64,000 nt of DNA from Cyanidioschyzon merolae. Lineage: Eukaryota. The notes beneath the pieces were generated by a model. That model was not told the origin of the DNA and ran no database searches. It saw only the letters and a list, made by a program, of their open reading frames with translations. The position numbers were made by a program, and so were the translations under genes. This document shows positions 3,190-34,657 of this stretch, piece by piece (position 1 is the stretch's first letter; every line of letters starts with the position of its first letter). Where the stretch lies: NCBI GenBank assembly GCA_000091205.1, contig AP006491.2; one strand, written 5' to 3'.

Positions 3190-3460
3190 ATTACGACTTG
3201 ACCTCTAGCCTGTTTTTTCCCTTCCAGTGCCTTTTCAATGTAGACAACATCGCGTTCCACAAACCCCGTATCGAATGGGACAGCGTGCGCTTGCGTGTAC
3301 CTCGGACAGAGTCCTCGCCAAGGCGATCGCGCGGAAGAGGCCGGTGATCAGAGCGTACAGTAATGGGCACGAAAACGAAGAATGCGTCATGGGGAGCGCT
3401 CTGCACCCGTCAACTACTTGTACTGAGCGATGAAGCGAGCGGTCAAGCGCCACCAAGAAC
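3190..3460 (-). repeat. Fragment of dispersed repeat family C (inverted), about 210 bp 5' of SHMT
   Basis: Minus ORF 3235..3456 (LYALITGLFRAIALARTLSEVHASARCP) matches plus-strand 14433.. (LYATMTGFFRAIPSETTLSSAHASVCCP). Minus ORF 3191..3406 (GLWNAMLSTLKRH) matches 7621..8148 (SLWNAMLSLMKQ). Confidence 0.45.
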
Positions 3461-5244: not shown

Positions 5245-6304
5245 TTCGTTACCCTCAAGCTGATTGCCCTGCTTGGACACGGACCCTCTATCTCTGTCGG
5301 GGGGTATGCACGAATACGGTGGAGGCACCTACACTCGCCCGTACTGTTTCCGGCGCATTCGACGAGAGCAGCGCCCTTATCTTTGTGAATCAGGCGTGGA
5401 CGTCTTCTCAAAGGCACCGCGATGACGCTGAAAGTGGTCACGAAACCCGTACGCAAGCAATAGATGCCGTCTATCGGAAACAGTTGTTCATCGGGGGATT
5501 TGCTCATCCACACGTCTGCACGCGTGGATGTTAGGGTGGAATCCAGCATGCCGGCATGGTAAAAATTCTCACGAATCGTTGATCCTCCGAACCGTCGGCA
5601 TCTGCACGTACAGGTACGGATACTAAAGTCGAATCCTTTATTTTCGTGATCTGTATCCACGCGTCTGGCAGCTCGTGCTCGTCAGCGCGTTTGCCGCAAC
5701 CTGCTGCTCCCTCTTCGGTGGTACGAATGTCGCCCAGCAGATCAGTTTCACCGTATCCGCCAGCCCAAAGTCGACGACGATCACAAAACAGGTCCCGGGT
5801 GCTCGTCACAACGGACCTCCGCTTTCGCGTCTGCGAACGCGAGCATCGAACGCGGAGCTTGCACGGCGCCAGGACGAGCGCTCGTTCATGCACAAACGCA
5901 AGCCTGTAGAAAAGCTTTCTGTGCTTCGTGCGACCTTGCGAAGCGATTTTGCAGGCCAGTGCCGGAACCTCGCCCAACTGATGTACGGCAACGCTGATTG
6001 TGGAAACGAGACAGCAAATTCAGCTGGATATCTGGACCTCTTCCCCTGGCATGTTTTACACGCCGTTCGATCATGACCAGAGCAGCGACTGCAGCGCTGC
6101 GATGCCAATGCGATCGCCAAGAGGTAGCGTCCCTCATCTGCAGGTCATCTAACAATCTAGGGACTGGTCTGTGGCAGCGGTGTGTGGCCCCCAGCGGTTT
6201 GCATTCCTTTGAACTGAAGAGGCACGAGCAGTAGTGGCGTGCAATGCATACGTCGGAGCCTCCTCGACATGAACGCCTTTCTGGGTAATACTCAGACTAG
6301 TGCC

Positions 6305-6362
6305 TTCTAGAGTGCCTGTACCAGCACGCCCGATTTGGTTTTGTTTGTTTTCCTGGCAGGAG
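6305..6362 (+). repeat. Copy 1 of a conserved 58-nt motif (stem-loop-capable, G/T-rich loop)
   Basis: ttctagagtGcctgtaccagcacgcccgAtttggttttgttTgttttcctggcaggag. It is identical at 55 of 58 positions to 21443..21500 in the same orientation, with unrelated flanks. GCCTGtaCCAG ... CTGGCAGG can pair. Confidence 0.5.
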
Positions 6363-7399
6363 GATCGAGTAGGATGACGAGGTCAGGACCCGTCTCGATG
6401 CTCTGGGTTCCTTTCCGATGAATGAGGACATTTTCTGCGCCTTATTTCGAGCGAATATTAGCGTCCAACTAGCGAAATCGGACAATCTCCGGCTGGAGTG
6501 CATGACATCGTGCACGGGACGCCAACGGTATCCGCAGTGCAGAGACAACAAGCGTGGATTCAAGTGTCTGCTCAATATGTAGGAAATAGAAATGACGAAC
6601 ATGACGTGTCGTTTGGTCGAGGCCCCTGGCTCTGGAGGTGCTGCAACGCGCTGAACCTGCACTTTTGCTCCGTCGACCAGCGCGCACAAAGTGAGCAGGA
6701 ACTGAATCTTTCCATCTCCCATCGATGCAATCCAGACGATTTGAGCGCATCACGAGCACAAGGGCACGTTGAGCGTGCTAGACGACAACAGCAACATCGT
6801 GAAGCAATGACGAATGCACCAGATGATGGAAAGTTAGTTGACCATCCGTTTATGGCGAGGCAGTCGGGGGCAAGAGACTTGCGATGATATGACTCTCCGC
6901 GCAACAGTACGCGCCATGACTTGATGCATCGTGACAGGAAGGCTCCCATCACGAGCGAGGGATGTCTCGTGCTTCCCGGGCGGACGTCCGTCGGCTCGGT
7001 ATCCAGCGAGCTTTCGCAGGAATCGTTTCGTACCAAGCGTGTGCGTTGTGCTGCGATGCGGAAGACTTGCGCTCACGAAATCAGTGCCTGGGAGAGGGTC
7101 ATAGATTCCCGTCTGGCTCAAGGCCCTGGCATGATACGGGGTCACCAATGCGGCAAGGCTGGTACGTTCTATGCATACATCGGGAACGGTTTCCCAGGTA
7201 ATCGGTGAACAAGAATGGTGCCATATCATTCAGTAGTACTGAATATTGGTATATATAGGCAGAACGTTTCACCGTAAACCTCTGATGGATTCCTAAAGCA
7301 ACGTCAGACTGAATCGGATCGGGTCCGTTCAGATAACCCGAGTGTTTACGCTCAACATGAGGGTCTCTTCTCCTTGTCATCAACATGAGCGTTTTGCGC

Positions 7400-8150
7400 G
7401 CTTCCACTGCGAATGCTTCCTTTTTCTCTCGCTTATATGCGGTTTTCAGTGTGCCGGTCTCTACGATCCCTCCAGCTCCGATGTCAGCTGTTGGGGAGAG
7501 TTCATGAGAGCGTGTGAGTCCCGCTCTCGTCGCTTCCTGCTGTTGTCGACGCATTGCATGCCGAGGCTCAAGTGACGATCTACATATCGATTCCCATTTT
7601 CACCGTCTTTGTAGATAGCCTTGATGCGCTCTTCGCAGCGCTGTTCATTCACTGAGCTCAGGTGCTCCCATCTGTCCACCGACTTTGCTTCTCAGAGCAT
7701 TGCCAACCTCTATAGTGTTCGAAAGCTTCGTTCATCTCGTTCGATGCCGTCCTCCGTTTCCGCGCTCGGTGCCGTACCGTGCGATCATGAGCAACTTCTG
7801 TATGAAAACTACGGCGACTGCGCTGTCCTCTGCACGTGGGAGCGCGCGCTGTTCCATGAAAGCCCGTCCTTGTGGAACGCAATGTTGTCCTTGATGAAAC
7901 AAGTACCGAGAAGCAAAATCCAGGATACAGAACATGATAACGAATTTCGATGTTCCGGTGCCCCGTTCGAGCTAAGCGATGCTGCACGCTCCACTGGAAA
8001 CAATCGCTCCGATGAATCTAGTCCGAGTCCGAGACGCTCTTTTACGAAAACAGCAGAAATGCGAGCTTCTCGCAACGTATCAGAGGAGAAGTATCATGCC
8101 GTTGTCGAATGGCGTCTTATCGATGGGAACAAAGATGGAAAAATCTAGTT
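7400..8150 (-). mobile_element. Degenerate copy of repeat family C (TnpB/Fanzor-like C-terminal block, coding sense on the minus strand)
   Basis: Minus ORF 7461..7679 (MDRWEHLSSVNEQRCEERIKAIYKDGENGNRYVDRHL...LTSELEGS) matches plus ORF 19954..20253 (MDIWESLILAMCHGCETHTDAVYKQDGNGKRSVDRNF...LTTQLEGI). Minus ORF 7732..7935 (MIARYGTERGNG) matches 19762..19944 (RIVWYGTDRGNG). The opposite-strand frames 7621..8148 match 14433..14744 at nucleotide level. Confidence 0.45.
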
Positions 8151-8860
8151 TTTGAACGGAACAGATGATTCAACTTGACAAGTTCCGTGAAGTTTCGGCT
8201 TATACTTGTGACCGAATCGTTCACGGACGACCTCGAGTATCTTTCCTCGTAAACCTAGCGGTGCAAAGGGCTGCACCCATGATTTGCCTTGAAATAAAGA
8301 GATCGAATCCCTGAAGGATTTGTGACATGCGCGTGCCTCATATAAAGAAAAGAGATGGGCGGAGGCTTTGCCTCATGAATTCGATGATGATATCGGTAAT
8401 TTCACGAACCTTCGTTCGGCGGCGTCGCCAAACATCCTGAATCCGGTGACGTAACAAAAGCCAACGGCAAAGCGTCGTAGCAGGCACTTCACCACTGAGA
8501 ACGCTGAGCCTACGTATGCATCCGCAAGCCCTTCGTGCAGCACTCGAAATTACAATTCTATACATGTACATACGGTTCGGAAAAAAATCTCAGGGCATGA
8601 ACAGTGCGACCAGTTCCATGTTTCAGTTTACTCTGACACGCGTCCTAGTGCAGGTAGCGGGGTGCGAGCTTCAGCGGCATCGTCCTCGCTTGACCAAGAA
8701 GCCTTGTAGTTACAGCGGGCGCGCTCCGATGCCTGAACGTCATCGCGAGCCCATCGGACAAGTTCCGCACTGAACGCCAATAACGCAACCCTCGTATTCG
8801 TCTTCTGCGTGTTGTGCAGGAGCCCGCCCTGGCAGCGGTTTCTGCAAAACTCGGCACCGC

Positions 8861-11341
8861 TCAGAGGACCTGTGGCACATCCACGGGACAAGGACATGAT
8901 ACGCGGGCAGCGGGTACCGGTCCTGGCCCTGGTTCCGCTGACGACGGCACCTCAGCCATAACTTGCGTACTGCGACGACGAAAGCGACGTGCTTGGTGGC
9001 ACACGCTGCGCACCATGGTGCCGCTCTCGGGTCCAAACAGATGCCGAGATATACCATCACGAAGCCCTGTTGCAGGACGTTCACAGAATGAGGCAGGTAC
9101 AGCCTGTGCTTCCCACTCAGTCCAAGTCGGGGAACGATTCAGCGCACCAACAAGCCCAGCGAGACGACGAGTCGCAGCCGTCCGAGCCACTTTTTCTATA
9201 TCCTCGACAGGCTCATGCCTGGTGTTGGTACCGCTCAGCGAACCAACAGCTGACGTACTCGAGGAGCGTGTGCGCACACCAGGTCCAGAGTGGCTCGCTG
9301 CATCCGCAGATGACGATCCGAGCGCTTGCGTTCCAGAAAGTGTTCGTGGACGCGACGCTGACGCCGTCACCGATCGGACATCGTCGAGGACTTTTCGAAT
9401 CTCTGACAAGTCCGTAGCATCGGGCAGCGCGCTGCGGCGTGTGCGTTTCTGTGGCGTTTCCGGCGGTGACATCACCGGCGTCGCCAGCCCTGCAGCCGGT
9501 GACGACTCCACATCCGAACTCGGGCACGCTGCCGTTGGTGCACCAGAATTCCGAGACCCGCCTGCGAGCGGCTGGGATAACGGCGTGCTCGACTTGACTG
9601 TCCGCTCAGGCGTTTTCAGCGCTGCTGCTGCTGCTGCTGCTGCACCTTTCTGTGAACGCAATGACCAGTGCGGGCCTGCCGTTTGCGCATGCGTCGAGAG
9701 CTCATCCAACATGGATGCGCTCGCAGGTGAATGACCTGATGAGGGAGTTTCGCACCTCAGGTCTCGCAATTTGGGTTCTATCTGGACCAGGTAATGCTGT
9801 TGGGCTCCGATCACAGATCCGGGGCGGCACAGCCGACACCAGGCAATGGCCTCCGTTGCCGTAAAGCCGTACATGTGCATCAAAGCACAGCACATAAGCG
9901 TTCCAGTGCGTCCAAGGCCGGCCTTGCAGTGAACCGCAACGGCACCCGGTTCATCCGCGCAAATCGCCAGAAAACGCTGGACGATATTCCAGTCCGGACA
10001 TGCACCGTCCGCAAAGTACAGATCGTAGTGACGAAATCCCGCTTGGCGAAAAACACGCGCGTCATAGCGTCGCCGGTTCAGACGTACCACAGCAGTGACG
10101 CCAAACTGCTGAAAGAGGCGAATAAAGTACTCGGGAGCACAGCCCACGCCGATGTCTGTTGCTTCCGGGCAGCTCGTCGGACCCGCGAACGCCAGCAGCT
10201 TACCCGGAACAATCCAGTTCAGGTCGCCGTTGTGTACTTGCTCCCAAAGCTCATATGATTCGATATCGAACGCATCTGGTGCGAAGAGGTGGCACACATT
10301 GGTCGCCCGATGCCAAGCGCTGATGCAGTCAAAGACGCCCAAAGGGAACGAGGATTCCGGACCAGCAGATGCATCGCGAAAGAAAACCAAAGAGCTTTTG
10401 AGACGCTGGAGTTTTGCATCGGCCTGTTCGGGGAGATCTCCAAGGCGAAGAACGCGATAGGCGCCCACCAGGGCTGCTGCGTTCGTCAAAGACTCTAGAT
10501 CATCTGTACAGAGCATGATGGCGATAGGAGACGCCCTGCCGGGGACATTGTCCTCCACGAAAGATCCTTCATCTCCGTCGCTAACAACAGTTTTCGGAGC
10601 GTATGCAAGATTGTGTTTCACTCCCTCGCCTTGGACTGCGTTGCCTCGCAGTGCTCCGTCGCACATACCCCGAGGCATCAAGACACCGTCCGTGCGTCCT
10701 TGCCAGAGATGCAGCTCTCGGACGATACTTTCAATACGCTGAATAAACCGCATGGTCTGCGCGAGATTGTATGGTCCAAAGTCGTTACAGAACGCCTCGT
10801 ACACAAGGTCGTCCTGGACGGAAAACAAAAGTCCAGCCAGGTGTCGAGTTCGGTTCGAGCGAGCGCCGCCACCTGCGGTGTCCGCAGCGTCCGCCTGCGG
10901 CCGGAGCGGCGTGCCGTTCGCAGTCGCTTCTGCGAAGAGCCCCAACAGCGTCGGCGGTGCTAACAACCGACAGTCCGGAGTGCGTCTTTCGCAGCATCCT
11001 CGATCGATGCTTTCAGATACTGGCCGGTCTTCAGGGTCTCGGGCGCGTACCGACCACGGAACCAGGTACACGAGACCAGGAACAACCTCAGCATAGAGCT
11101 CTAGACGAAGATGCGATCGCAGTTCTGGCCTCTGCTCCAAGGCAGAACGCAGCCAAGGAGACATCCAAGCCCATTCTTCATATGCACAGTGGGTTCTTTG
11201 TTCGTCGCCCTCAAAGCAACTGCTGCTTCGCTGCTCTGAGGGTTCCTCAGCTCCGCCCGGTCCCGCGCTTGTTCGCACGCGCTCCGACACAGACTGCGCC
11301 CTGCTCTGCTGGCGGGTGCGATGCGCAACACCGACCATCAT
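8861..11341 (-). CDS. CDC14: Dual-specificity protein phosphatase CDC14 with a long Ser/Thr/Ala-rich C-terminal tail
   Basis: N-terminal A-domain (YEAFCNDFGPYNLAQTMRFIQRI) and the catalytic B-domain P-loop AVAVHCKAGLGRTGTLMCCALMHMYGFTATEAIAWCRLCRPGSVIGAQQHYL are both present. The N-terminus has about 100 aa of extra sequence, so the start could be downstream. Confidence 0.8.
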   Translation of the reverse strand: MMVGVAHRTRQQSRAQSVSERVRTSAGPGGAEEPSEQRSSSCFEGDEQRTHCAYEEWAWMSPWLRSALEQRPELRSHLRLELYAEVVPGLVYLVPWSVRARDPEDRPVSESIDRGCCERRTPDCRLLAPPTLLGLFAEATANGTPLRPQADAADTAGGGARSNRTRHLAGLLFSVQDDLVYEAFCNDFGPYNLAQTMRFIQRIESIVRELHLWQGRTDGVLMPRGMCDGALRGNAVQGEGVKHNLAYAPKTVVSDGDEGSFVEDNVPGRASPIAIMLCTDDLESLTNAAALVGAYRVLRLGDLPEQADAKLQRLKSSLVFFRDASAGPESSFPLGVFDCISAWHRATNVCHLFAPDAFDIESYELWEQVHNGDLNWIVPGKLLAFAGPTSCPEATDIGVGCAPEYFIRLFQQFGVTAVVRLNRRRYDARVFRQAGFRHYDLYFADGACPDWNIVQRFLAICADEPGAVAVHCKAGLGRTGTLMCCALMHMYGFTATEAIAWCRLCRPGSVIGAQQHYLVQIEPKLRDLRCETPSSGHSPASASMLDELSTHAQTAGPHWSLRSQKGAAAAAAAALKTPERTVKSSTPLSQPLAGGSRNSGAPTAACPSSDVESSPAAGLATPVMSPPETPQKRTRRSALPDATDLSEIRKVLDDVRSVTASASRPRTLSGTQALGSSSADAASHSGPGVRTRSSSTSAVGSLSGTNTRHEPVEDIEKVARTAATRRLAGLVGALNRSPTWTEWEAQAVPASFCERPATGLRDGISRHLFGPESGTMVRSVCHQARRFRRRSTQVMAEVPSSAEPGPGPVPAARVSCPCPVDVPQVL

Positions 11342-12012
11342 CTCCGTCGTGCCTGTGCAGCTACTGAAAGCTGATAAGCACAGGACAAAAGTTCAGAGGC
11401 TACAAACACGTCTTTGCATCCACGTCCGAGCACACATTCGTCAGGGACGCTGCAAAATAGACCCCCGATGGATCCGCCTCCGATGCCGGGGAGTGTAGGC
11501 CCCGGTGCGCTTCGACGGCCTTGTTTCGTTGTTCGCAGCCGCAGCTCGATGCGCGATCTCCGGCGGATGCGCGCCTGCCGTGGACGTAACGGTCGCGCGA
11601 TGCTACTGGGCCTTGCATCGCATACGACTCAAATGTACAGAAATGTTCAAATTGATACGGCGATCGTTACGAGCGCGTGTGCGTGCGATTTGGCTGTGAT
11701 GGAAAAACGTGTCCATGGACTGTGGATGGCCCAAATTGCGGGATAGGTGAGCATTGACATTCGGGAAAGCGTCCATCATGCTGCGCAATACTCACGCCCA
11801 AGTTCTATTACCTATGCTTCCTATTTTCTATATGGTGCGCTTGATATTTGCACCTCCAGATCTGACATGCATTGAACACGTCGCGCATGTCGCCGCTTTA
11901 GGGAAACGCGATACTGATCATCAGCGTGACGCTCGAACGAACAAGTTGTATTTGCGTCAAATTCGTACCAAAGTAGAGTGTTTATCCCAATCGTGTTTCA
12001 ACCATCAAGTAC

Positions 12013-13941
12013 GTGTATTCAAGTGGTTATTTGCAGTTTGTATCAGAAGCGTTCAAAGAGCGATATAAAAAAATCAAAAAATGGAAAGTTTCGGAAGAGG
12101 AAGAGGAGGATCCTGGAGGCGGAGTATCACCGGCTGGCAGAAAAAAACAAAAGACAGTGCAGAGCGAAGAAGAACAGGAAAAGACGAAGAAGCAAAAAGG
12201 AGAGGCTCTACCTCAAATGCTGGAAGAAAGACGACGGTGTGACGAGATGGTAGTGAAAGCCTGTCTTCGTAAACAGAACAAAGATCCGTACAAGCAGGCG
12301 TTGCGGGAGGCCATTAGAAACCGTGTTGAGTCGTACTGTAGGAGTATTCGTAACGCTTCTTTTGGACATATGCATATAGCGAAGGAGATGTATCGTAACG
12401 TGACGCACATGGAAACAGTCGAGGTTCCGGATGAATTTTTCAACGAGAACTTATTCGTCGCTTGCTGGTTGGCACAGGGGAAGCTTCGACGAAAACAATG
12501 AGCGAGTGCATGCTCTCCACGAACATTGCGCCGAATTTCGCTTCAGCGATACTCGATACAAGGATGTCCGGCATATTTACACCTACGAGCCGATGTAGTA
12601 CCCGACGAACCTGAGGAACCATTTGACCAAGAACCTCAAACGCTTCGTGATACGCTCCATCTTTGCACTATACCCGGGCCTCTCTCGCAAAGTGATTGAG
12701 GATCATAGTCGATGGCATCGTTAACGATAGTAAGAATGAAGAGGAGAACGAATTCGTTGAGAAGAAGACATTACACAGGGGACAGAATGAAGCTTCTGGA
12801 ATCCGTGCGGCTATTCAAGAGCACCGTGTGGTCGTGGGCCTGTTCAACCCAGCAGAAATGGTATCCGATATGGAATAAGATTAAGAAAGATGCTATCCCC
12901 TAATCCTGCGGTTTTTCGTGTTTTTGGACCGAGAACTCGAACGTAAGGCGGAGATGGAGCTGGGTGTCGTAAAATGAAGAGTCGGAGAAACGGAAGGCTG
13001 CCCTAATGGGAACGCGCTTCAACGGCGTTCCATTGTGGAACATCAAGTCGCACATTGTGACCATCAACTCCAGAGTCCTTCACAGCTTAATGAAAGAGGT
13101 CACCCCAGTGTTCGATGTCCATGAGGAGGAGTTCAGCAAAGTGACAAGCCGCGGAGCGGACTTTCGAGCCTTCCGGGAATTCATGGAAGCTCAGGCTGCT
13201 CATGACTGCGAGATGTGGAAATGGTCCGGAAAGCCCCGGAGGGCCCGTCAGCATGTGAACCTGTATTGTGGCAAACAGCGTGCATTCACCAACTTCTTCA
13301 ATCAGTTGAGCGTCCTCAAGGTGGTCAAGAGTCAAAGGATTGTAATATCGTACGGAGCAGGGCGCTTTGTACCCGGAAGACGGAGCGCACCCGCTCCATC
13401 GACACGAGCGAACAAGGAGTGCGCATACCTGTTTATTCCATTTCCGATAGATGAGTTCCGAACGTCCTATGTGCACCATGAGCTGAGATGTGCATTCCAG
13501 AGAATCGAGTTGGAGAAGTGTCAGCAGAGCCCTGAGCAAATAGAAAAATACTGTGCGCTAACGGAAGTGCAAATGGAAAGGAGGGCGAAAGTTCGACGGC
13601 TACTCGCATTAGAGAGTACAATCAACGGCAAGAAACGTACGGAGTTTGTGAATCGTCAATTTCACGCTGTTATCACAATAATGAGATGTGCGGTGCTGGA
13701 GACGAGACCCGAGGAGTTGACGCGAACCATCTCTGTGGGGCAGCTCCTCAAGGTCGCATTGTACGGAGAGAAGTTGAAACCAGTAGTTGCAGGCCGGTCA
13801 AAAAAGGCTGGGAGGCGTCTGCACGTCGGTGGGAGACGTATTGTCTACGTCGGGCGGTTTGCAGCTCGCCACCACAGTACACCCGTTATGCAGCGTACGC
13901 CGACTGAAACGCAATCGCTTCTTTGTCACACAATTTTGTAA
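12013..13941 (+). mobile_element. Longest copy of a TnpB/Fanzor-like (RuvC/Zn-ribbon, OMEGA-family) element; degenerate and frameshifted, likely non-autonomous
   Basis: Adjacent same-strand ORFs 12013..12501, roughly 12600..12900 and 13006..13941 form one broken reading frame with NLS-like K/R tracts. The C-terminal part reads RIVISYGAGRF ... FIPFPIDEFRTSYVHHELRC ... NRQFHAVITI. Compare TnpB/Fanzor ...vDP.YTSq.Cs.CG... and RuvC-III hRD.NAA.NI. The Cys to His and Asp to Gln substitutions suggest an inactivated copy. The paralogue at 34658..34891 retains RDFDAAFNV. Confidence 0.45.
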
Positions 13942-14429
13942 GCATAAAGTTGAAATCGCTCCTTGAAGCATGCACTCGTGCACTCTGAATTTTGGGTATT
14001 GCCCCAGCGTTATCAAAATTGCCCCTTGGTGGATGGTTTTGCAGCTGCCTCCTTTTCTCTCCATCATCTCCGCGTTTGAAAACGTCGGTCTCTCGAGTCC
14101 CTACAGCTCTGCGGTCCGCAATCAAAGGTTCTTGATGGCAGCGTGCAAGTCCTTATTTCCCAGCTTCCAGGTGCAATCGACACCTTCTATTCACAGGCGA
14201 AAGTTGCGATACACGCATCGCTTGACATTTTCATTCGTTTTTTTGGACAGGTTCGGTGCTTCCTACGCAGCGGTGACATTAGAATGCTATCGGATGCTCC
14301 TACGCGTCCACCAATTTTCCTCATGCTCTGACCACCGACCTATGGCGCGTAAAGACTTGAGTCATCGCTCGGCACATACCATGGACGGCTAGACAAGGCG
14401 ATTCGCCTCGCGCTCCTCTGATTCCGAGC

Positions 14430-14850
14430 CCCGTGTTGTACGCTACGATGACGGGGTTCTTCCGGGCGATCCCTTCGGAGACTACTTTGTCCAGTGCACA
14501 CGCGAGCGTATGCTGTCCTCTTCAAGGGCGTATTTGTAGAACGCAATGCTGTTCACGATGGAACGAGTACCGGAAGCGAAAAATTCAGACTGTAGAAAAA
14601 CGTGACCCAAGAACTTCGATCCTGCTGCGTGCCCTTTGTGCAAAAGCGACGGTGCGCCCTCCAATGGAATCCATCTCGACGATGACTCAGGCCCGAGTCC
14701 GAGACTCTTTTCCATCGAATCACAAGAACTGGGAGCCCCTGTGACCATATCCCGTGATACACGTCATGCTCGTGTCGATTACCATGTCGTCGAGGGCTAC
14801 AAAGAGAAGAAGCATCAAATTTCGAACAGAGTCGATTATATGACGTGAGC
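14430..14850 (+). repeat. Fragment of repeat family C, about 640 bp 5' of MetRS
   Basis: Nucleotide-level homology of 14500..14720 to 7830..8050 (gtagaacgcaatgctgttcacgatggaacgagtaccggaagc vs gtggaacgcaatgttgtccttgatgaaacaagtaccgagaagc ; cccgagtccgagactcttttc vs tccgagtccgagacgctctttt). Residues 14433.. match the 3235..3456 copy. Confidence 0.4.
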
Positions 14851-15490
14851 CATTCACTTTTCGTTAGGCCTGAGCCCCCAGAGAGGCTTCCAAGGTTCGA
14901 AGCCGATCATGCGTCCGCGTCAACCCAGCGGAACGGAATCCTGGTCCCAGACGGTGCTCTGAACGAGAAAGAGTGAAAATTTGACGAGTGCATGATTGGT
15001 GGACGGTGCGCGTAAGGAGATATGTGTAGTCGTCTTCGCATGTAATGGATCATGATTCCTGATATTTTACGATTCCGTGTTCGTGGGCGTCGCGAGACAT
15101 CCTGATTCCGCAGACGTAACGCACTCCAGCGGCAACGCGTCGAATGACCCATTCCGATACGACGACAGCGCTTCTCCAAACGACGTATGATTCCATAATC
15201 CCTTCTCGCCGCACTTCGAATGTGGCGTCTGTGCGCCTAACCGATTTCGGAAATTATCGACAGACCGGAGCAAAGCGAGCAGTTCAGTGTCCCATTCTCA
15301 TTGGACCCGGGCCTCGGCACCGTCGACAAACAGTATGACGCAACCTCGTATGGACGTCGCCCGGCTCATGCCGCAACGCGACGATCGATCAAGGCCGTGG
15401 TCTGGACGATCGTTTGCGTCTGCAGCCTGCCGTAGTTTGTTTGTTTGTTTTGTACTTCCACAGGCGACGTGACCTTGTGCTTCGCGGTAC

Positions 15491-17959
15491 ATGTCTGCTG
15501 AGAGCGACCTGGCTGATGATTTGGACCGGCAGGCCTCATTGACGTCATCGAGGACGAAGAAGATACCCATTCAAGGAACTCGAAACGTCCTCGTTACGTC
15601 CGCGTTACCGTACGTCAACAACGTGCCGCACCTGGGAAACCTCATCGGTGCTGTGCTCTCCGCTGACGTCTACGCGCGCTACCTACGTCAGTGTGGAGTC
15701 AATGTGCTCTACATCTGTGGCACTGATGAGTACGGCACCGCCACAGAAACAAAAGCGAGAGAGGAAGGCGTATCGCCAAAGGCGCTTTGTGACAAGTACC
15801 ACGAACTGCACCGACACATCTACCAGTGGTTCGACATACGCTTTGATCACTTTGGACGAACATCTATCCCTCAGCAGACAGCCATCTGTCAGGAGATATT
15901 CTGGGATGTGTACAGAAACGGCTTCGTCGTCGAGGACACCGTCGAACAGCTCTACGACGCGGAGGCGGGTATGTTCCTCGCAGACCGCTATGTGCGGGGC
16001 ACGTGCCCGCACTGCGGCTACGCTGAGGCGCAAGGAGACCAGTGTGACGCGTGCGGGAACCTTCTGAACCCGACGGAACTGTTGGATCCTCGTTCCGCAC
16101 TGACCGGAAGCGTCCCAGTGCGCCGCACGTCCCGCCACCTTTTCCTGGACCTTCCGCGGCTGCGTGACGAACTGGAGGCGTGGATTGAGCGCTCTGCAGC
16201 TCGGGGGCAATGGAGCGAAAATGCCCTCACGATGACGCGGAGTTGGTTGCGTGATGGTCTCAAAAAAAGATGTATCACAAGGGATCTGCGTTGGGGCGTT
16301 CCAGTTCCACTAGATGGATTCCAAGACAAAGTTTTCTACGTCTGGTTCGATGCTCCGATTGGCTACCTGAGCATCACTTCGGACTACATGGGCGACAACG
16401 AGAGCTGGCGCTGCTGGTGGCAGCAGCCAGACGATGTTGAACTCATTCAGTTCATGGGCAAGGACAATACACCATTCCATACGATCATTTTCCCGGGAAC
16501 GCTACTCGCTACCCGGCGTCCGTTCACCATGCTTTGTCGCTTATCGACGACAGAATATCTGAACTATGAGAGCGGTAAGTTCAGCAAAAGCCGCGGTACT
16601 GGCGTCTTTGGTGACAGCGCATCCGAGACGGGTATACCCGCTTATGTGTGGCGTTATTATTTGGTGGCAAATCGACCAGAGCAAGCAGATTCTGTCTTTA
16701 CATGGACCGATCTGGCTGCAAAGAATAACAACGAATTGCTTGCGAACATTGGCAACGTCGTCAGCCGCGTGGTTGCTTTTGTTCAGAACCAAATGGGAGG
16801 CGTGCTGCCGGCGCTCGCGGACGCCTGGTCACCAGCGCCGCTCGATGAACGCTTGTTCGAGCAGGTTACGGCGGAGTTGCAGGTTTTTCATCAGGCAATG
16901 GCGAATATCGGCTTGAAGGCAGCGCTGCGCTCGAGCATGTCCATCGGAAGACTCGCGAATCAGTACTTGCAGGAAACAAAGCCGTGGGACCTCTTCAAAC
17001 AGGACTCGAAACGCGCAGACGGTGTTCGTGTTCTCGTCATCGCGAGTGCAGTTATCCGCTTGCTGGCTGTGACCCTCGAGCCGTTCCTGGGGTCGGGCTT
17101 CGCGAGGCTGGTTTTCCAACAAATCGGTGTACCCCATGCCGATGAGACAAATCGAATTCCGCAGCGTTTCGATCGATCGCAGCTTCAGGAATGGAACTAT
17201 GGCACCGAATCATTTGCGTTTGGCAAACCACAGCACCTGTTCACGAAGCTGGAACCCAGCTTCATAGAAGAGCTCCGTCGCCATTTCGCGGGACATGTTT
17301 CTGCCAACGAAGGCTCGGCATCGAGTGGTGTGGCATCTTCCGACAGCGAGCTACCTCTGGAACTTCGTCTCGGACGGATTATGCAGTGCAACAAGACAGC
17401 GCAGTCCGATCAATTGTATCAGTTGGTGCTGGATCTAGGCCCCGAGGAGGGATCTCGCCAAGCAGCGGCAAATCTCGGACATGCGTTTCCGATGACCAGC
17501 GACTTGCTCGGCCGCTTCGTTGTCGTATGCTGTAATGTGGAGCGCGCGGTGCTAGGCGGTGTGCAAAGCGAGGCTATGGTGCTCGTTGCAGAGAAGAAGG
17601 CGCGCACAGCGCTCCTAACAGTGCGCCACGCGAATGAGGCTATGCTAGGGGCAAGACTGCTCCCATGGTCAGCGTCTGAATCAGGAAATCCGCACACGGC
17701 ACTGATGAACGCAGCTCCGCTGTCACCCCTGGATCGGAAGGGTCTCCAGAGCCGTCTGAAGGAACTTCGTGTTCGCGACGACGGTGTCGTGATTTGGAAG
17801 CAAAACAAGCCGCTGGCAGCTGTCGTCCGAGATCCCGATGATCCACGTCCTCTTGGAACATCTAGCGACCCCGCGATGAAGCCGTCTACCGCATGGGTCG
17901 TAGTTAGCGCCGAAGCATCCCTGGATGTAGGATTCTGGAATAACGCACGTGTACGGTAG
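15491..17959 (+). CDS. MARS: Methionine--tRNA ligase (cytosolic type) with a C-terminal EMAP-II/Arc1p-like tRNA-binding domain
   Basis: HIGH-region LPYVNNVPHLGNLIG and KMSKS-equivalent KFSKSRG are present, together with the zinc knuckle CPHCGYAEAQGDQCDACG. The C-terminus LELRLGRIMQCNKTAQSDQLYQLVLDLGPEE...VVVCCNV is tRNA-binding-domain-like. The ORF is 822 aa with no interruption. Confidence 0.9.
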   Translation: MSAESDLADDLDRQASLTSSRTKKIPIQGTRNVLVTSALPYVNNVPHLGNLIGAVLSADVYARYLRQCGVNVLYICGTDEYGTATETKAREEGVSPKALCDKYHELHRHIYQWFDIRFDHFGRTSIPQQTAICQEIFWDVYRNGFVVEDTVEQLYDAEAGMFLADRYVRGTCPHCGYAEAQGDQCDACGNLLNPTELLDPRSALTGSVPVRRTSRHLFLDLPRLRDELEAWIERSAARGQWSENALTMTRSWLRDGLKKRCITRDLRWGVPVPLDGFQDKVFYVWFDAPIGYLSITSDYMGDNESWRCWWQQPDDVELIQFMGKDNTPFHTIIFPGTLLATRRPFTMLCRLSTTEYLNYESGKFSKSRGTGVFGDSASETGIPAYVWRYYLVANRPEQADSVFTWTDLAAKNNNELLANIGNVVSRVVAFVQNQMGGVLPALADAWSPAPLDERLFEQVTAELQVFHQAMANIGLKAALRSSMSIGRLANQYLQETKPWDLFKQDSKRADGVRVLVIASAVIRLLAVTLEPFLGSGFARLVFQQIGVPHADETNRIPQRFDRSQLQEWNYGTESFAFGKPQHLFTKLEPSFIEELRRHFAGHVSANEGSASSGVASSDSELPLELRLGRIMQCNKTAQSDQLYQLVLDLGPEEGSRQAAANLGHAFPMTSDLLGRFVVVCCNVERAVLGGVQSEAMVLVAEKKARTALLTVRHANEAMLGARLLPWSASESGNPHTALMNAAPLSPLDRKGLQSRLKELRVRDDGVVIWKQNKPLAAVVRDPDDPRPLGTSSDPAMKPSTAWVVVSAEASLDVGFWNNARVR

Positions 17960-19699
17960 CGCCGTTCGCATTCGATGATCGACGAGCTGCTACCTACCTT
18001 AGGATACCTAAACACCGCACTATTCAATCTCGCCCCGAGGATGGAATGTTCGAAGCGATCGAGCAAGAGCTGTTGACCCGGGCTCTGCAGCCTGAACACA
18101 AGTATGTGGACTAGAGCATGCGCTCTTCCATCTGTTGAAGTCGTCCATCATCGCGGATACTACAATTCTGTTGTTCGACTCGCTCCTGAACAGGACTGGC
18201 TATTCACATGGCAATCAATGGAAAAGCGGAGACCGACACTATCAAGAGCGGCTTGAGTCGTGCCCGGCATTCACCCGTTACGAGCACGATGCGACGCATG
18301 CGCGTCTGGCGAGGCCTCTACCAAGCGCGCACTGCAGACGGAACGCACTGCACGGGAGCCTGTCCACGCAGGGCGACGTTTTCGGTGGTGCACGTCGTTC
18401 TACCAGGCCCCTGAGCGCGCTTCGAACGATGTCGCCCTCCAAGATCCGCAGGATGCCGAGCGACTTGACCCGCGCGTACTGAGGTAAACGACGCGGTCCT
18501 AGACTGTAGCAGGTATCCGCGAATCACGCAAGCCTAAAACGCCAGTGCTGTAACTGCCGAGACTTTCCAGACGCATGTACGGATGAGCAAACTCGTTCAT
18601 CAAGTAGGACAGGGCCCAAAGATGCCAGCATTTGCACCAATCCAACATGTACGCGGTGTGCCGCTAGCCTCGAGTGCGTCCTCTCCGTCTGCTACGATGC
18701 GGTCGCTATGATTGTACAAAGGGTGTGCGCGGCTCTGCATGAGCATGCTTCCGCGACGACATATGATGACATTCATGAATCGTAGGCTGTTGGAATCTGA
18801 ACACAAGTGAAGAAAGGATAGACACTCTCCTGGATGCCGATTTTCATCCCGGAATCTCCGATCCCTGGTCAGTGTCGATGCAATACCCATCAAAACAATG
18901 ACTGGTGTGTGCGCGTACATCCGTAAACGTGCATGCTTCTATGCACTGGGAGCTCGCCTATATCCAGGTCACATGAACACGGAATACTGAACTGCTCGCG
19001 CTGTTACACCCTCGATATTGTTTCCGAAACTGTTATAGATGTCCCGACTCGACACACGAATTGCAGCAGTGGGGATTGCGGATGCCTAGGGCATTGCAGG
19101 ATTCCGGGCCTTGCTTCCCGAGTCGATCCTTTGACGCCCTGCCGCTGGAATTTCGTACGGTCATCGGAATCAAGATGACTCGCGTCGTCCGCGAACAAGG
19201 ATGCGTCAACGAAGAGAGTTCATGTTCAAATGCATATGTGCCAGCCTGAACGCCTCTCCATGCCTCATGTGTATCGTGGCTAGTTCATACAATTTTCAAG
19301 TTATCGGTTTTTCTGTTTCACGGCAACTTGTGGACACAGCAACGCTCACCGCTGGATTGAAGAGGAAAGCATGCGGCATCGTCACTTAAAGTCGTGTTCA
19401 CACGCGCACGACGAAATTTCACGGATCTCTTCGTGTCAACCGAGAATCCATTTCGATCGAAGGACAGCGTGTACCCGATTGTGGCCGTCGGAACCAACGG
19501 CATTCGACAGTAGCATGATGCCTCTCACTAGATATGCTACCAGAAGCGCTGGGCCCCTCTGGTTCCATGGAAAACCGTCTTGCACTAGAGTCATCGCAAC
19601 GATCTCTTCCAGCGGGGAGTGTGTCATTACGCTCTACGAAGATGCGTAGAAGGATCGATATTTCTCGATCTGATCCCCTGTCTGAATTCTTCTTCCGGG

Positions 19700-20400
19700 G
19701 CATGTTTCTTCATCATCAACGTTGCGCTCCATAACTCGGTTGCGTGTAACAACGTGCGATTGTGCGTACACCGGACAGAGCGCTTGTCGAGAGGATCACC
19801 CACGAGAAGAAGCTACGGATCGTATGGTACGGAACCGACCGTGGAAACGGTTGCGCGCATCGGCTGGAGTCATCTGCTCCCGTCACGGGCAGGCACCGTG
19901 CGATGACGCAAGCGTTCACGCGCCACAGCGTATTCCGCAGCTGAAGAATCGTTGTGGATATCTGGGAATCCCTGATCCTAGCCATGTGTCACGGTTGCGA
20001 AACGCACACCGATGCTGTCTACAAACAAGACGGAAATGGCAAGCGCAGCGTAGATCGCAACTTTTGCACCCACGTAATATGCATATACAACATCGGGAAC
20101 TATCGAAATCAGGAACCTAACGCTGCTGTCGATGTTCTTCAACTGCTGACAACACAGCTGGAGGGAATCGAGAAACGCCCGTCTGGAAAGCCAGAGATAA
20201 GAGACAGGAAAAGCAAGCAGTTCCATGCAGAGTTTGAAAAACACTGGTATTGAGTACCAGAAAAAAGAAACCCAAAGGTTGAAGTTCATGCCCGAGTTAC
20301 ACAAGTAGACCTGTTCTATTTGATGCTCACATCGCTAGCAGACTGCGCTGATCCAAGTCGCGTGAAACGCTGCTTCGCGCGCACACATCGTCGATTCGAT
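19700..20400 (+). mobile_element. Copy of repeat family C retaining a Zn-ribbon plus RuvC-III-like block (TnpB/Fanzor-like C-terminus), about 250 bp 5' of NDUFS7
   Basis: ORF 19954..20253 reads AMCHGCETHTDAVYKQDGNGKRSVDRNFCTHVICIYNIGNYRNQEPNAAVDVLQLL...LEGIEKRP. This is CxxC-(22)-C(x)4C followed 12 aa later by NAAvDvL. The upstream ORF 19762..19944 reads RIVWYGTDRGNG, which parallels RIVISYGAGRF in 13006..13941. The tail LEGIEKRP parallels LEKRPEEL in the 34658 copy. Confidence 0.45.
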
Positions 20401-20497
20401 GTTTCGCAACGATTCACAGCGTAAACAATTTCTTCTGTTGCCGCTACTGTTGAACGTTTCTGCACGGTAGACGCTGGTGCCTGCCCAGTCTTGAGAT

Positions 20498-21190
20498 ATG
20501 AGTCAGGTGTTCATCCTGAAGCGTGTTTTCAGTCGGTGTACGAGACCGCTTCTACCAGTGGTAGAACGAAACAGCGGAGCAGCGAGCTGCTTCGTCACTG
20601 GGTACCACGGGGCTGCGCTCTCGACGCAAGCGGACACGGTTCCGAGCGTGCGCCCCGGCACCGCTCCGCGGGTGCTCAAGTCGTCTGCTCCATCGCTGCC
20701 GGTGGGCATGCACCCGGAAGGAAAGTTAGAGTATGCCGTATCGAAGCTGGACGACTTGGTGAACTGGGCGAGGCGGAGCTCGGCGTGGCCGATGACGTTT
20801 GGTCTCGCGTGCTGCGCAGTCGAGATGATGCACGCAGCTGCCGCGCGCTACGACTTTGATCGATTCGGCATCATCTTTCGACCATCACCGCGGCAGAGTG
20901 ATGTTATGATCGTGGCCGGGACTTTGACGAATAAAATGGCACCAGCTTTACGGAAAGTGTATGATCAAATGTCGGAGCCGCGCTGGGTCATCAGCATGGG
21001 GTCTTGCGCGAACGGCGGTGGCTACTACCACTACAGTTACTCGGTGGTGCGCGGTTGCGATCGAATCGTCCCCGTTGACATATATGTACCGGGTTGTCCG
21101 CCGACTGCGGAGGCCTTGGTCTACGGTGTATTACAGTTACAGAAGAAGATGAAACGCCAACAGACTTTGCTCGCTTGGATGAAGAAGTGA
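20498..21190 (+). CDS. NDUFS7: NADH:ubiquinone oxidoreductase (complex I) 20 kDa PSST subunit / NuoB homologue, with an N-terminal presequence
   Basis: [107 protein letters not shown] is the diagnostic PSST/NuoB core with the Fe-S cysteines. About 70 aa of S/R/A-rich leader precedes it. Confidence 0.9.
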
Positions 21191-21442
21191 GCATATCCGC
21201 GCAGCGCATGCAGGATGAAGAGACCGTTTCTTTCCCAAAAGCAAATGCGTGCAGGCAGCTTTTGACGGCAAGGTATGCGACATGAGGCTGTGAATGATCC
21301 CCGCGACCAGGGTTATGGAGATGAGCGACCCGCCGGCGCCTCGAACCTGTGCACAGCACCTCTCGTAGAAGCAGGGGGTGTTCCGGCCCGACCGTGGAGT
21401 CGATGAACGCAGTCTGGTGACTGGCATGCCCAGAGCAGGACG

Positions 21443-21500
21443 TTCTAGAGTACCTGTACCAGCACGCCCGTTTTGGTTTTGTTCGTTTTCCTGGCAGGAG
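21443..21500 (+). repeat. Copy 2 of the conserved 58-nt motif, about 250 bp 3' of NDUFS7
   Basis: ttctagagtAcctgtaccagcacgcccgTtttggttttgttCgttttcctggcaggag. It matches 6305..6362 at 55 of 58 positions. Confidence 0.5.
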
Positions 21501-23953
21501 TCCAGTGAATGCAATGTATCCTGTGGATCGAAGAAAGGTCCTGGAGAGACTCTATGCTGTAACTGCTTGCTTGAGAAAAAGGCGACCGTACCCGTCCAGC
21601 GTAGCCATTCTACGCTCATCGTAGGGATTAACTGGCCTCCTCGTTCTCCGCAAGACGAGCGCCGTGCGCCCGAAACAGTACGTGTCACTCTCTATCGATA
21701 TGACGGTTTTATGGTCGATCCATTCCATACTGTCTCTAAAAGATATAATTGAAGTAGCCGCATGGTCTGAAGCTACCGTGCTGTTGATGCGTCCGGTGAC
21801 CAGGAGACAGCAACGGACCGAGAAGGAAGCACGCTTCTGCGAGAGACCTTCGCACATGAGATGCCACACACTTGACTCTGGTAGTGCGCTGCGAACGCTG
21901 GGTACAGGGCCGACGGGTGTTCGTCTCACACGCTGAGACTGCATTCGTGAGAAACGGTAGACCTGTATATACGTACTCAGAAATGAGCAGGCCGTCGTTT
22001 CTAAAGTAGAGACAAATGAGCGTTCCGAAAACATCATCTCCAGCGGCGATGCAGTCTTGTAGTCGCCTGCGAATCCCAAACCGAATAGAATCGCATAGCA
22101 CTTGAGCTTTCATCGAAACGCTTTGCGGCTCCTGCTTCCCACATGCTTCCGTCCTGTTATTAGAAAACGTCGCTTCCCATGACTCAAGAGCTATCAAATA
22201 GAGCGCTGCTGCTTCTGGCGTTCATCTGGTCTCCGTACCGGCCTCGGCTCAGTGGTTCAGTCTAGCCGAAGGCATCCTCTCGGCAGGCAAACGCCATGTT
22301 CATGATCGTAGAACAGTCGCTAAGTCGTTCGTGTCCACGATATCCCTCTTGGACAACTCGCTGCAAGCCTTCACCAGCGGGTGAGCTGCTGCTTTGCTTC
22401 TCTGTCAGTGCGCGGGAGGGAGCGGAAAGCCGCGCTTCTGTCTAGAGATACGTTCGCGCCGAAGCAACCGACGAAAACGCACTCGAAGAACCGCAGAGAC
22501 GCACAGACGTAGGAACTGCGGGGTTCGGAAACCGCGTTTAGCCGGCGCGTCCTAGTCCTGAGGGAAAACTTGGATATAGATTCCAGCGAACACATGCATC
22601 CTCCATCGCCAAGTCCAAAACGAAGACGAAGAAACCACCAGACAAAGGAGAAGAAGACCCGCCCCTAAACGCGGACGCAATTCGACAAGAAAGGAAACGT
22701 TCGGGGCGCGATGGTTAGTCTGAAGCGGTTGTCAGCGCCATCCTCCAACATAAAACACGAACGGGGAGTATCCTGCGAAAAGTGACATGCAGGAGTCCAT
22801 CAGGGGTCGCTTGACGCACCTCGTCGAGCACTTGCTCCCAGAAGTGGTGGACGCCGGGCTTCCAGCCGTCCATATTCTTCGCGAATTCTTGAGCCAATGC
22901 TTCGTGCAACTACACAGCTGTGATGCTGCTGAGAAGATACAAAACGGCATGAATTGCCAGGATTCCATGGTATCGGCAGTCAGGCATCATGAACGCTACG
23001 AGGCACACCAACAACTGGAATGATATCATCAGGACCGAACTTGACCTTCTGAAATACGTATCGAGCTGGGAGCTATGCCCTGTACGCTTCACCGAGAGCG
23101 TCCATGGTCGTCCAGCTCGCTCATTAGGACAAAACTTGGCAGAATACATGAGAGCACGCTGGTGTCGCCAACAGTTCCGATTGCGTGGAAGCAAGAAGCA
23201 TGCATTCGTCAGCCTGAAGAATGAGCTCGAGACAGAAGCAAACGACACGTCGCGTCCTTTTTATTGGTATCCTACGGCGCTGGCGTACCGTACCGTCAAC
23301 GCTGCACGCGTGCACCGTCGACCAGACCATGCAACGAGTGCAGGAATCAATTCAACGGATTCCCGTCGATGCACTCAGGACGGTACCACCGCATCATGAG
23401 CATGGATTCACGCTAATTCATGCACAAAAGAGAAATCTGAAACGGAAACGAATGCATGAGATGGTGTACGCTACGCTGATCCAACACCAGACGGCGATGC
23501 AATGGTGTATCGAAGCGTCTGGCGATGGGTTGCGTTCCACGAGCGGGGACGCGCAGGCACCTGCTGCACTCAAACTCGAACGCTTCGATCCTCATCCTGA
23601 ACGATTTCGCAATGCCTTAGCACCCAAAGGCTTTGGGTCTAGCCAACTTTCAAGATCTTGGTTTAGGATTCTCAGTAGGCATTGTGTTGCTACGCGGAAG
23701 ACTGGTGATGAAAAGAATACTGGGGCCAGGAAACAGGGTATTCGACGCTCGCCTGGATCCGGGTACTGGTGTGTGGTAGCGCTCAGCCAGCGCGAAACAC
23801 CGCAGCGGCATACGTACATCGACACGGGAAACAATTTTCCTGGGCAATCGATGAACGACCATGATGTTCCATGAGTCCACGGTACCGAGTATACCACGCT
23901 TCGACCTGGTCAACGCATCTCTCTGCCCTGGAAAGCATTCCCATGGAATACGA

Positions 23954-26695: not shown

Positions 26696-26804
26696 GACAC
26701 CGTATTTTTCGGATAAGCGAATCTGGCGCATACCGATGCAATCGGATCAGGCGCCAGCATCGCAGCATCGATGCGGCTTCGTATCCGGGATGCGCGTAGC
26801 CGCT

Positions 26805-27170
26805 GCGATTCCGCGATGATGGACTAGATGGATGACGGGATCGAGCGATGATGGACTAGATGGATGATGGGATTCTGCGATGCTTTATTAGACGGATCAT
26901 GGGATCGAGCGATGCTTTATTAGACGGATCATGGGATCGAGCGATGCTTGACTAGATGGACGATGGGATTCAGCGATGATGGACTAGATGGATGATGGGA
27001 TCGAGCGATGCTTTATTAGACGGATCATGGGATCGAGCGATGATTGACTAGATAGATGCTGCGATTCAGCGATGATGGACTAGACGGATGATGCGATTCC
27101 GCGATGATGGACTAGATGGATGATGGGATTCATCGATGCTTGACTAGATAGATGATGGGATTCCGCGATC
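26805..27170. repeat. Minisatellite: about 11 tandem 32-bp units, consensus GATG(A/C)T(G/T)(G/T)ACTAGA(T/C)GGATGATGGGAT(C/T)(G/C)AGC
   Basis: Direct head-to-tail units (gatgatggactagatggatgatgggatcgagc / gatgctttattagacggatcatgggatcgagc ...) with no unique spacers, in the intergenic region between the GDPD and EFL1 genes. Confidence 0.9.
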
Positions 27171-34652: not shown

Positions 34653-34657
34653 CCAGT

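Follow-up and report, generated by a model that had tools for sequence, protein, structure and literature searches.

Non-coding islands exapted from old repeats, the transposon-derived conserved elements, are known mainly from animal genomes. Conserved ends of about 50-80 nt on otherwise unrelated or diverged bodies are found in the 3' tails of LINE/SINE partners and in the termini of non-autonomous transposons. The minimal model eukaryote Cyanidioschyzon merolae has 27 introns and a reported content of 0.7% transposable elements. An interspersed repeat described from this species carries a truncated ORF that resembles WSV486 in BLASTX, is about 3.2 kb long and is present in 253 copies (Nozaki et al. 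2007, PMC1955436).

The sequence analysed here, referred to as the window, comprises 64 kb of C. merolae 10D and is part of a chromosome of 810,151 bp. It contains a 58-nt element twice on the plus strand, at positions 6305-6362 (copy 1) and 21443-21500 (copy 2). The exact base comparison agreed with the first-pass annotation: the copies are identical at 55/58 positions in the same orientation and differ at exactly three sites (G/A at position 10, A/T at 29 and T/C at 42). None of 100 dinucleotide shuffles yielded two matches to the element. Like the exapted islands, the 58-mer is a short, sharply bounded block of high identity within repeat DNA that has decayed to near-random similarity. Unlike them, it is known from sequence alone, as two paralogous copies in one species and with no orthologue in a sister taxon, so that constraint is not demonstrable by cross-species conservation. 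The window is rich in old repeats which, like the WSV486-like repeat, are C. merolae-specific, intergenic, dispersed and kilobase-sized (R1, R2 and others, see below), and the WSV486-like repeat is described as transcribed. In contrast to that repeat, with which we compared them by its description only, R2 has no coding frame and an ORF in R2 has no relatives.

Both copies are real sequence, since independent assemblies from metagenome and SRA data, about 99% identical to the window, contain each of them with the three bases that distinguish it. Copy 1 had the same sequence in four independent metagenome contigs and copy 2 was invariant across 21 population sequences. Within the 64 kb no further copy was detected, either as a 20-mer of the element with up to three mismatches on either strand or by an nhmmer profile search, which beyond the known pair gave nothing below E=1. 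A metagenome scan with an 18-nt core, which detects intact 18-mers alone and whose unspecific pattern gave mostly chance bacterial hits among at least 120 matches, returned seven true matches among those listed, all of them at the two known loci. The assemblies JGI24721J44947 and Ga0080006 each possessed these two loci and nothing else among the matches listed. The true core matches listed included neither a third locus nor an organelle contig, the latter being indirect evidence against an origin of the fragment from organelle DNA, and scans of viral and prokaryote genomes gave nothing relevant. A literature search for the sequence of the element found no match.

The two copies lie 15 kb apart in spacers between convergent genes. 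Copy 1 is located in a 3.6-kb spacer, 1,061 nt beyond the stop codon (5244) of the SHMT gene (BAM79985; 3430-5244, plus strand, although a start near 3670 would follow from the annotated length of 524 aa) and ahead of CDC14, which is on the minus strand with its stop codon at 8861. Copy 2 lies in the 2.8-kb spacer between NDUFS7 (BAM79988; 20498-21190, plus strand) and GDPD. It begins 252 nt past the NDUFS7 stop codon, where a distance of about 250 bp had been noted. The products of NDUFS7 and SHMT are probably mitochondrial proteins. In Cyanidiococcus the gene order is retained, and the equivalent spacers are only 554 and 168 bp long and do not contain the element. The same is true for a second sister lineage, which has kept the gene order with an NDUFS7-GDPD spacer of 159 bp lacking the element. 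Any function of the 58-mer would therefore be young and lineage-specific.

It had been stated that the sequences around the two copies are unrelated. This is correct for the immediate flanks, which share no significant similarity, but not for a block of about 800 nt further downstream, which is homologous in the same orientation at 58% identity. Upstream, the 17 nt before each copy (6288-6304 and 21426-21442, plus strand) agree at 10 positions, which alone is not significant; together with the 58-mer they constitute a 75-nt repeat (family D7) of 87% identity. An anchored alignment of the 45 nt upstream of the copies was marginal, with p about 0.03-0.09. The downstream block, R2, occupies 6373-7246 at the first locus and 23020-23892 at the second, both on the plus strand, and copy 2 of R2 ends 62 nt ahead of the GDPD stop codon. 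Its BLAST core (6449-7246 versus 23096-23892) is 58.1% identical over 819 columns, with E values of 1e-26 to 1e-28. The leftward extension to about position 6373 may belong to R2 as well, judging from a weak alignment whose score was reached by 10 of 300 shuffles. R2 differs between the loci by 135 transitions and 165 transversions (ratio 0.8), a spectrum of saturated old divergence and not a signature of hypermutation. A reading of R2 as a gene was rejected: its two copies have no coding frame in common, a protein search with the 217-aa ORF in copy 2 of R2 found no relatives, and population SNPs in this ORF comprise eight nonsynonymous changes and one synonymous change.

R2 follows copy 1 of the 58-mer within about 11 nt. 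At the second locus the two are separated by a block of 1519 nt (21501-23019, plus strand) without a match elsewhere in the window, so that either an insertion at locus 2 or a deletion at locus 1 has taken place. Pfam gave nothing in the ORFs of this block. The order and orientation of 58-mer and R2 are the same at both loci, and both 58-mers are part of one diverged duplicated unit. R1, which adjoins R2 at locus 1 (copy a, 7297-8640, plus strand), belongs to a separate 5-copy family and is for this reason context and not part of the unit. Neither R2 nor the 58-mer was found again in about 9 kb past the right end of the window.

The contrast between the 58-mer and the rest of the unit is pronounced. 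In 58-column windows of the R2 alignment a mean of 33.5 ± 3.0 positions were identical, and the best window reached 40/58; at an identity of 0.58 the probability of 55 or more matches is 2.4e-10. The observation that the pair is conserved far above the old transposable element copies was likewise upheld, the old repeats of the window being 57-73% identical. Such preservation calls for either constraint or recent copying. The unit, made up of the 58-mer and about 0.88 kb of R2, is restricted to the C. merolae lineage and occurs once in each of the two expanded convergent spacers; only its 58-mer is well preserved, and the remainder has drifted to saturation (58% identity). Our best reading, to which we give a probability of roughly 40%, is that the 58-mer is a short cis-acting segment, 58 nt at the 5' edge of the unit that purifying selection would have held since the duplication. 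In this role it would be recognised by a protein, as DNA or in the transcript, and would not act as a folded RNA. That selection and not late copying caused the identity is something we infer, as we do the bound partner. Two points should be kept in mind. An unbroken stretch of 58 bases under constraint would be long for a site bound by a protein, which counts against this reading, as does the absence of the element from both sister lineages, and a sample of two copies is compatible with selection and with a single late copying event alike.

Population data bear on both possibilities. In 25 environmental sequences no site was variable in the 2 x 58 nt of the element. The flanking 2 kb showed 42-43 variable sites per 2058 nt, from which 2.4 would be expected in the element (P about 0.09), and the deficit in polymorphism is not significant. 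Every strain has the same three differences between its copies; homogenisation of the copies is consequently not ongoing. It might be thought that the identity reflects nothing more than a patch without function, a tract of 58-75 nt which was moved from one locus to the other long after the duplication of the unit, by short-tract ectopic conversion or by template switching in break repair, and which then acquired three neutral substitutions. The boundaries of the element are sharp, with immediate flanks lacking significant similarity, and the structural breakpoint of the 1519-nt block falls at the right-hand end of copy 2. A divergence of 5% is a few times the approximately 1% seen between strains and fits a single older event, and no functional signature emerged from the fold, Rfam, UAAA or branch-site tests described below. 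We nevertheless regard a late patch as somewhat doubtful. By that time the flanks were already about 40% diverged and hence too dissimilar for ordinary homologous recombination, whereas an insertion independent of homology would hardly be expected at the equivalent position and in the same orientation beside R2 at both loci. Moreover, neither hybrid nor re-homogenised copies were seen in any strain of the population and metagenome sequences.

Within the homologous unit the conserved piece is situated at the outer edge or close to it, a position that would also suit the terminus of a mobile element. The element would be nearly extinct and of low copy number, and two members of diverged subfamilies would have inserted separately and fairly recently at the two loci. 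The bodies would have differed before insertion and the shared, cis-required end would be a promoter at the 5' side or, on the minus strand, a 3' tail to which a reverse transcriptase responds. The 1.5-kb block difference inside the unit resembles that of deletion derivatives, both spacers are lineage-specific expansions rich in dispersed repeats such as the five copies of R1, and a transcribed interspersed repeat averaging 3.2 kb is reported in 253 copies from C. merolae (PMC1955436). Several observations speak against this possibility and we consider it unlikely. Inverted matches to 20-mers of the element, with up to three mismatches allowed, were absent from the 64 kb, and around the unit or the 1519-nt block there was no terminal inverted repeat beyond a 6-bp match, formed by the ends TCCAGT...ACTGGA of the block. 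The longest word shared by the flanks was 5-6 nt, within the distribution of the shuffles, so a target-site duplication is not above chance. A poly(A) or simple-repeat tail is absent, and Pfam detected no transposon-type domains in ten long intergenic ORFs, five of which lie within these two spacers. Together with the lack of a third locus among the true core matches listed and of any R2 or 58-mer in the 9 kb past the window, these results also leave the MITE or solo terminus proposed in the first-pass annotation without support. In addition, if the weak similarity that may run about 45 nt upstream of the 58-mer is real, the element would be internal and not terminal.

Specific kinds of termini fared no better. 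A solo LTR would be at least 100 nt long, with TG...CA ends and a target-site duplication; the element measures 58-75 nt, begins with TTCT (or ATAC/ATGC), ends with GGAG and is not accompanied by a duplication. Helitrons begin with 5'-TC, end with CTRR-3' after a subterminal hairpin and insert between A and T. On the minus strand the element ends with ...GGCACTCTAGAA, which contains CTAG, but the shared sequence continues for 2 nt beyond it, with a following base other than T; on the plus strand direct reading showed that the TC is preceded by T instead of A. With the LINE/SINE tails and transposon termini mentioned at the outset the 58-mer shares a conserved short end, diverged bodies and an inner content that differs between its loci. 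It differs from them in that a target-site duplication, a tail repeat, an inverted terminal repeat, a partner element and a reverse transcriptase are all missing, and the matches listed contain no further copies.

Size (58-75 nt) and sharp edges would also be appropriate for an embedded small RNA, and the first-pass annotation had proposed a small structured RNA with a stem enclosing a G/T-rich loop. The stem can indeed be drawn, yet the fold is no better than that of shuffled sequences: on the plus strand the two copies have minimum free energies of -9.4 and -9.2 kcal/mol (z-scores +0.91 and +0.72), and for the minus strand the z-scores amount to -0.30 and +0.26. The three substitutions lie outside the proposed stem and are therefore uninformative with regard to covariation, of which there is none. 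Rfam gave no gathering-level match in the window and nothing overlapping either copy at E up to 5; no tRNA or tmRNA was found, and direct reading found no C/D or H/ACA boxes common to both copies. Furthermore, C. merolae is stated in PMC11376382 to be without RNA interference machinery. A different role in RNA is suggested by the end of the element, TTTTCCTGGCAG/GAG, which resembles a 3' splice site, and both copies have a pyrimidine-rich tract followed by YAG (GTTTTCCTGGCAG/GAG) as expected for the 3' end of a spliceosomal intron. However, the ACTAAC(C) motif present in all 26-27 known C. merolae introns (PMC2483917) was found upstream of neither copy on the plus strand. The sole WCTAAC, in a TCTAACA at 6148, precedes copy 1 and is some 210 nt away from its CAG, and copy 2 has none. 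An RNA gene or an intron end, with polypyrimidine tract and CAG, is thus hardly credible. Coding potential was no more informative, as five of the six frames of the 58-mer are open and the three substitutions are mostly nonsynonymous whichever frame is read. An exhaustive HMMER search with a spurious 183-aa ORF across copy 2 found this ORF alone, and also missed the copy-1 ORF intended as positive control.

Finally, both copies are situated 3' of plus-strand genes in convergent spacers, which would fit an element for 3'-end processing or termination of these genes, with the GU/U-rich tract GUUUUGUUUGUUUU behaving like a downstream element. Direct reading revealed T-runs similar to terminator tracts, and between the NDUFS7 stop codon and copy 2 there is no UAAA. 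Since the first one is at 21737, copy 2 probably lies inside the NDUFS7 3'UTR and would hence be transcribed. The poly(A) signal of C. merolae is UAAA, located 3-35 nt upstream of the cleavage site and used by 93% of the primary poly(A) sites (PMC8831791). TAAA is absent from both strands of the element and from the 35 nt ahead of each copy, and the nearest ones on the plus strand are at 5624 and 7275 for copy 1 and at 21737 for copy 2. SHMT has its UAAA sites at +316 and +380, and copy 1 is found about 700 nt beyond them. In addition, the short NDUFS7-GDPD spacers (159-168 bp) of the sister lineages, in which the element is missing, argue against a conserved NDUFS7 3' signal. The suggestion of a 3'-end or terminator-type signal is consequently not supported, and as an explanation we find it very doubtful. 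The 58-mer is comparable to the GU/U-rich downstream elements of poly(A) sites in its GU/U-rich central tract GGTTTTGTTTGTTTT and in the probable 3'UTR location of copy 2. It is distinguished from them by the missing upstream UAAA, the distance of copy 1 from a gene end and its absence from orthologous 3' regions. For a Pol III gene with its terminator a run of at least four T would be expected right behind a recognisable gene of this class. TTTT occurs twice, but neither copy follows a tRNA, a 5S RNA or another Pol III RNA, and the copies do not share the sequence ahead of them.

In sum, nothing found here marks the 58-mer as an RNA gene, the end of an intron, a signal for polyadenylation or a mobile element, and it is a minor curiosity. 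More ambitiously, it could be a young regulatory sequence of the C. merolae lineage, exapted from repeat DNA and selected at two convergent gene boundaries. A protein might bind it in the NDUFS7 3'UTR and, past SHMT, in read-through or unannotated transcripts, or it might serve as a roadblock or insulator between converging units. On the present sequence evidence so specific a proposal is improbable. Should the constraint on the element be genuine, it would offer a rare example of a new cis-element from repeat DNA that is accessible to experiments, because gene targeting works in C. merolae (PMC3764038). If it is a relic of late copying its value would be that of a marker of how the spacers were built. 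The spacers themselves may matter more than the 58-mer: all of those among the five genes of this region are 4- to 16-fold longer than their Cyanidiococcus counterparts and are filled with ancient dispersed repeats.

The two copies of the 58-nt element lie on the + strand at 6305-6362 and 21443-21500 and differ at three positions, exactly as the first-pass annotation had it. Both are situated between convergent genes. Copy 1 follows the SHMT stop codon by 1,061 nt in the spacer between SHMT (BAM79985; 3430-5244, +) and the gene of a CDC14-like phosphatase (BAM79986; 8861-11341, -). Copy 2 lies 252 nt past the stop codon of NDUFS7 (BAM79988; 20498-21190, +), close to the earlier estimate of about 250 bp, in the spacer before the gene of a GDPD protein (BAM79989; 23954-26731, -). 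Together with MetRS (BAM79987; 15491-17959, +) these genes form an unbroken series of GenBank entries, and exact protein matches place the window on the 810,151-bp chromosome of C. merolae 10D. Among 100 dinucleotide shuffles of the window, none yielded such a pair. No further copy, full or partial, was found on either strand of the 64 kb (20-mers, up to 3 mismatches), and a profile search of the window yielded nothing besides the pair below E=1. The right edge of the element is abrupt; upstream, 17 nt more match at 10/17 positions (family D7), which alone is not significant. The repeat is no assembly artefact, since the copies recur unchanged in 25 independent contigs from metagenomes or SRA, which match the window at 98.5-99.6% identity. 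One metagenome contig (Ga0080006_1274078, 7821-9519) follows the window as far as position 9286 within CDC14, beyond which its sequence is unrelated; a structural variant or a chimeric assembly may be the cause.

The flanks of the two copies had been described as unrelated, which proved incorrect. Sensitive self-comparison of the window aligned 6449-7246 with 23096-23892 at 58.1% identity over 819 columns (E about 1e-26 to 1e-28), and this diverged block, termed R2, has the orientation of the 58-mers at both loci. On its left side R2 can be extended to about 6373 and about 23020 by a weak alignment, whose score was reached by 10 of 300 shuffles. At locus 1 (around copy 1) R2 would therefore begin within ~11 nt after the 58-mer; at locus 2 a 1519-nt block (21501-23019) separates them. 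An old unit, composed of 58-mer and R2, is thus common to both loci. R2 has a saturated substitution spectrum (135 transitions, 165 transversions) and no reading frame consistent between its copies. Searches against 5.8 or 1.8 billion proteins found no relative of a 217-aa ORF in R2 (23221-23874), whose population changes were 8 nonsynonymous and 1 synonymous. Seven of these nine SNPs fall at codon position 1 of the spurious ORF (P about 0.025 for any one phase); no alternative open frame spans the nine sites, and the excess may be due to chance or CpG-driven. The 1519-nt block, which starts directly at the end of the 58-mer, occurs in locus 2 only, has no relatives elsewhere in the window and gave no Pfam match. 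Its ends, TCCAGT...ACTGGA, form a 6-bp inverted match and carry no further terminal repeats.

Gene order and orientation are the same in Cyanidiococcus yangmingshanensis and in a second sister lineage, with which only coding DNA of C. merolae could be aligned. The SHMT-CDC14 spacer measures 3.6 kb in C. merolae, 554 bp in Cyanidiococcus and about 1.5 kb in the second relative; the NDUFS7-GDPD spacer measures 2.76 kb, 168 bp and 159 bp, respectively. Both the 58-mer and R2 were absent from the two relatives. Therefore both copies sit in DNA that the C. merolae lineage has gained, and the element cannot be an ancestral NDUFS7 3' signal. The 58-mer is the best-preserved remnant of an old, lineage-specific intergenic duplication within a repeat-filled region. 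Although its setting is ordinary, this repeat is genuine and, statistically, striking.

In 58-column windows of the R2 alignment there were on average 33.5 ± 3.0 identities (maximum 40), and the 55 of the 58-mer have a probability of 2.4e-10 at the R2 rate. The least strained reading, to which we would give a probability of roughly 40%, is that selection preserved a putative short cis-acting segment of the unit. No variable site was found in the two 58-mers among 25 environmental sequences, where 2.4 were expected from the 2.1% variable sites in the surrounding 2 kb (P about 0.09); as a sign of constraint this is suggestive only. A non-functional patch copied late between the loci is a somewhat less likely alternative. 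By then the flanks would have diverged by about 40%, which makes ordinary gene conversion implausible, and homology-independent insertion is not expected twice at an equivalent place and orientation beside R2. Each of the three inter-copy differences is fixed across all strains; the copies are therefore not undergoing active homogenisation. Any function of a selected segment would be young, and a regulatory element that was recently exapted at the boundaries between convergent genes is an improbable candidate.

None of the specific identities first proposed, a small structured RNA, a 3'-end or terminator signal and a mobile short element, passed its test. The minimum free energy of the 58-mer was no better than that of shuffled sequence on either strand, Rfam searches were negative both at the gathering score and with E relaxed to 5, as was a tRNA search; none of the three inter-copy substitutions falls within the proposed stem. 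At its end the element has a pyrimidine tract followed by CAG, as an intron might, and every known C. merolae intron contains ACTAAC(C) (PMC2483917); no suitably placed ACTAAC(C) was present. An RNA gene or intron is thus extremely unlikely. A coding role was rejected, the substitutions being mostly nonsynonymous in all open frames. In C. merolae the poly(A) signal UAAA precedes the cleavage site by 3-35 nt (PMC8831791), and neither copy has UAAA within the element or its 35 upstream nt. SHMT has UAAA sites at +316 and +380, long before copy 1. Copy 2 is probably inside the NDUFS7 3'UTR, because the first UAAA there is at +547. A 3'-end element is very unlikely.

That the 58-mer is the terminus of a mobile element would account for its sharp outer edge and for the internal content differing between loci. 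This is nevertheless unlikely, as additional copies and insertion hallmarks are lacking: no inverted partner, no target-site duplication above chance and, in ten long intergenic ORFs, no Pfam domains were found. A metagenome scan with the 18-nt core shared by both copies returned mostly chance bacterial matches; seven of the matches listed contained the whole element, four orthologous to locus 1 and three to locus 2. Among them, two assemblies had exactly locus 1 and locus 2 each and nothing else. An equally sampled third locus with intact core would have a ~6% chance of escaping seven matches, and five extra loci <0.1%, which argues against a multi-copy family; diverged copies may exist. The ~9 kb past the right end of the window contained no further copy.

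The four spacers that separate the five syntenic genes (5245-8860, 11342-15490, 17960-20497 and 21191-23953) measure 2.5-4.2 kb in C. merolae versus 0.17-0.95 kb in Cyanidiococcus, and the extra DNA consists of old dispersed repeats missing in the sister lineages. Such repeats are consistent with the interspersed repeats published for the C. merolae genome (PMC1955436, PMC11050394). Among them is R1, a discrete non-coding family of about 1.3 kb with common ends and five copies at 57-60% identity (7297-8640 and 14040-15310 on the + strand; 2483-3453, 18964-20336 and 50803-52050 on the - strand), fragments of which also occur beyond the window (L145:705-927). Four of the five copies lie within ~0.4 kb upstream of a gene start (SHMT, MetRS, NDUFS7 and ORF 52438-54948). 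An ATG-bearing motif derived from R1 is found at 3400-3448, 19873-19921 and 51699-51747; in SHMT its ATG at 3430 is in frame and gives the 604-aa ORF reported by metagenome gene callers, the annotated protein having 524 aa and those of sister taxa 525-527 aa. Three more old repeat pairs comprise 1012-1785 with 11923-12696, 13478-13830 with 34634-34986 and 12228-13119 with L145:2513-3404; two are inverted (71% and 73% identity) and one direct (77%), and one lies within an unannotated 311-aa ORF (13006-13941) for which Pfam gave no match. Tandem arrays were present at 58500-58926 (24-nt period), within ORF 58227-59030, and at 26772-27233 (32-nt period), immediately 5' of the start codon of the GDPD gene, whose protein is 895 to 935 aa long depending on the strain.
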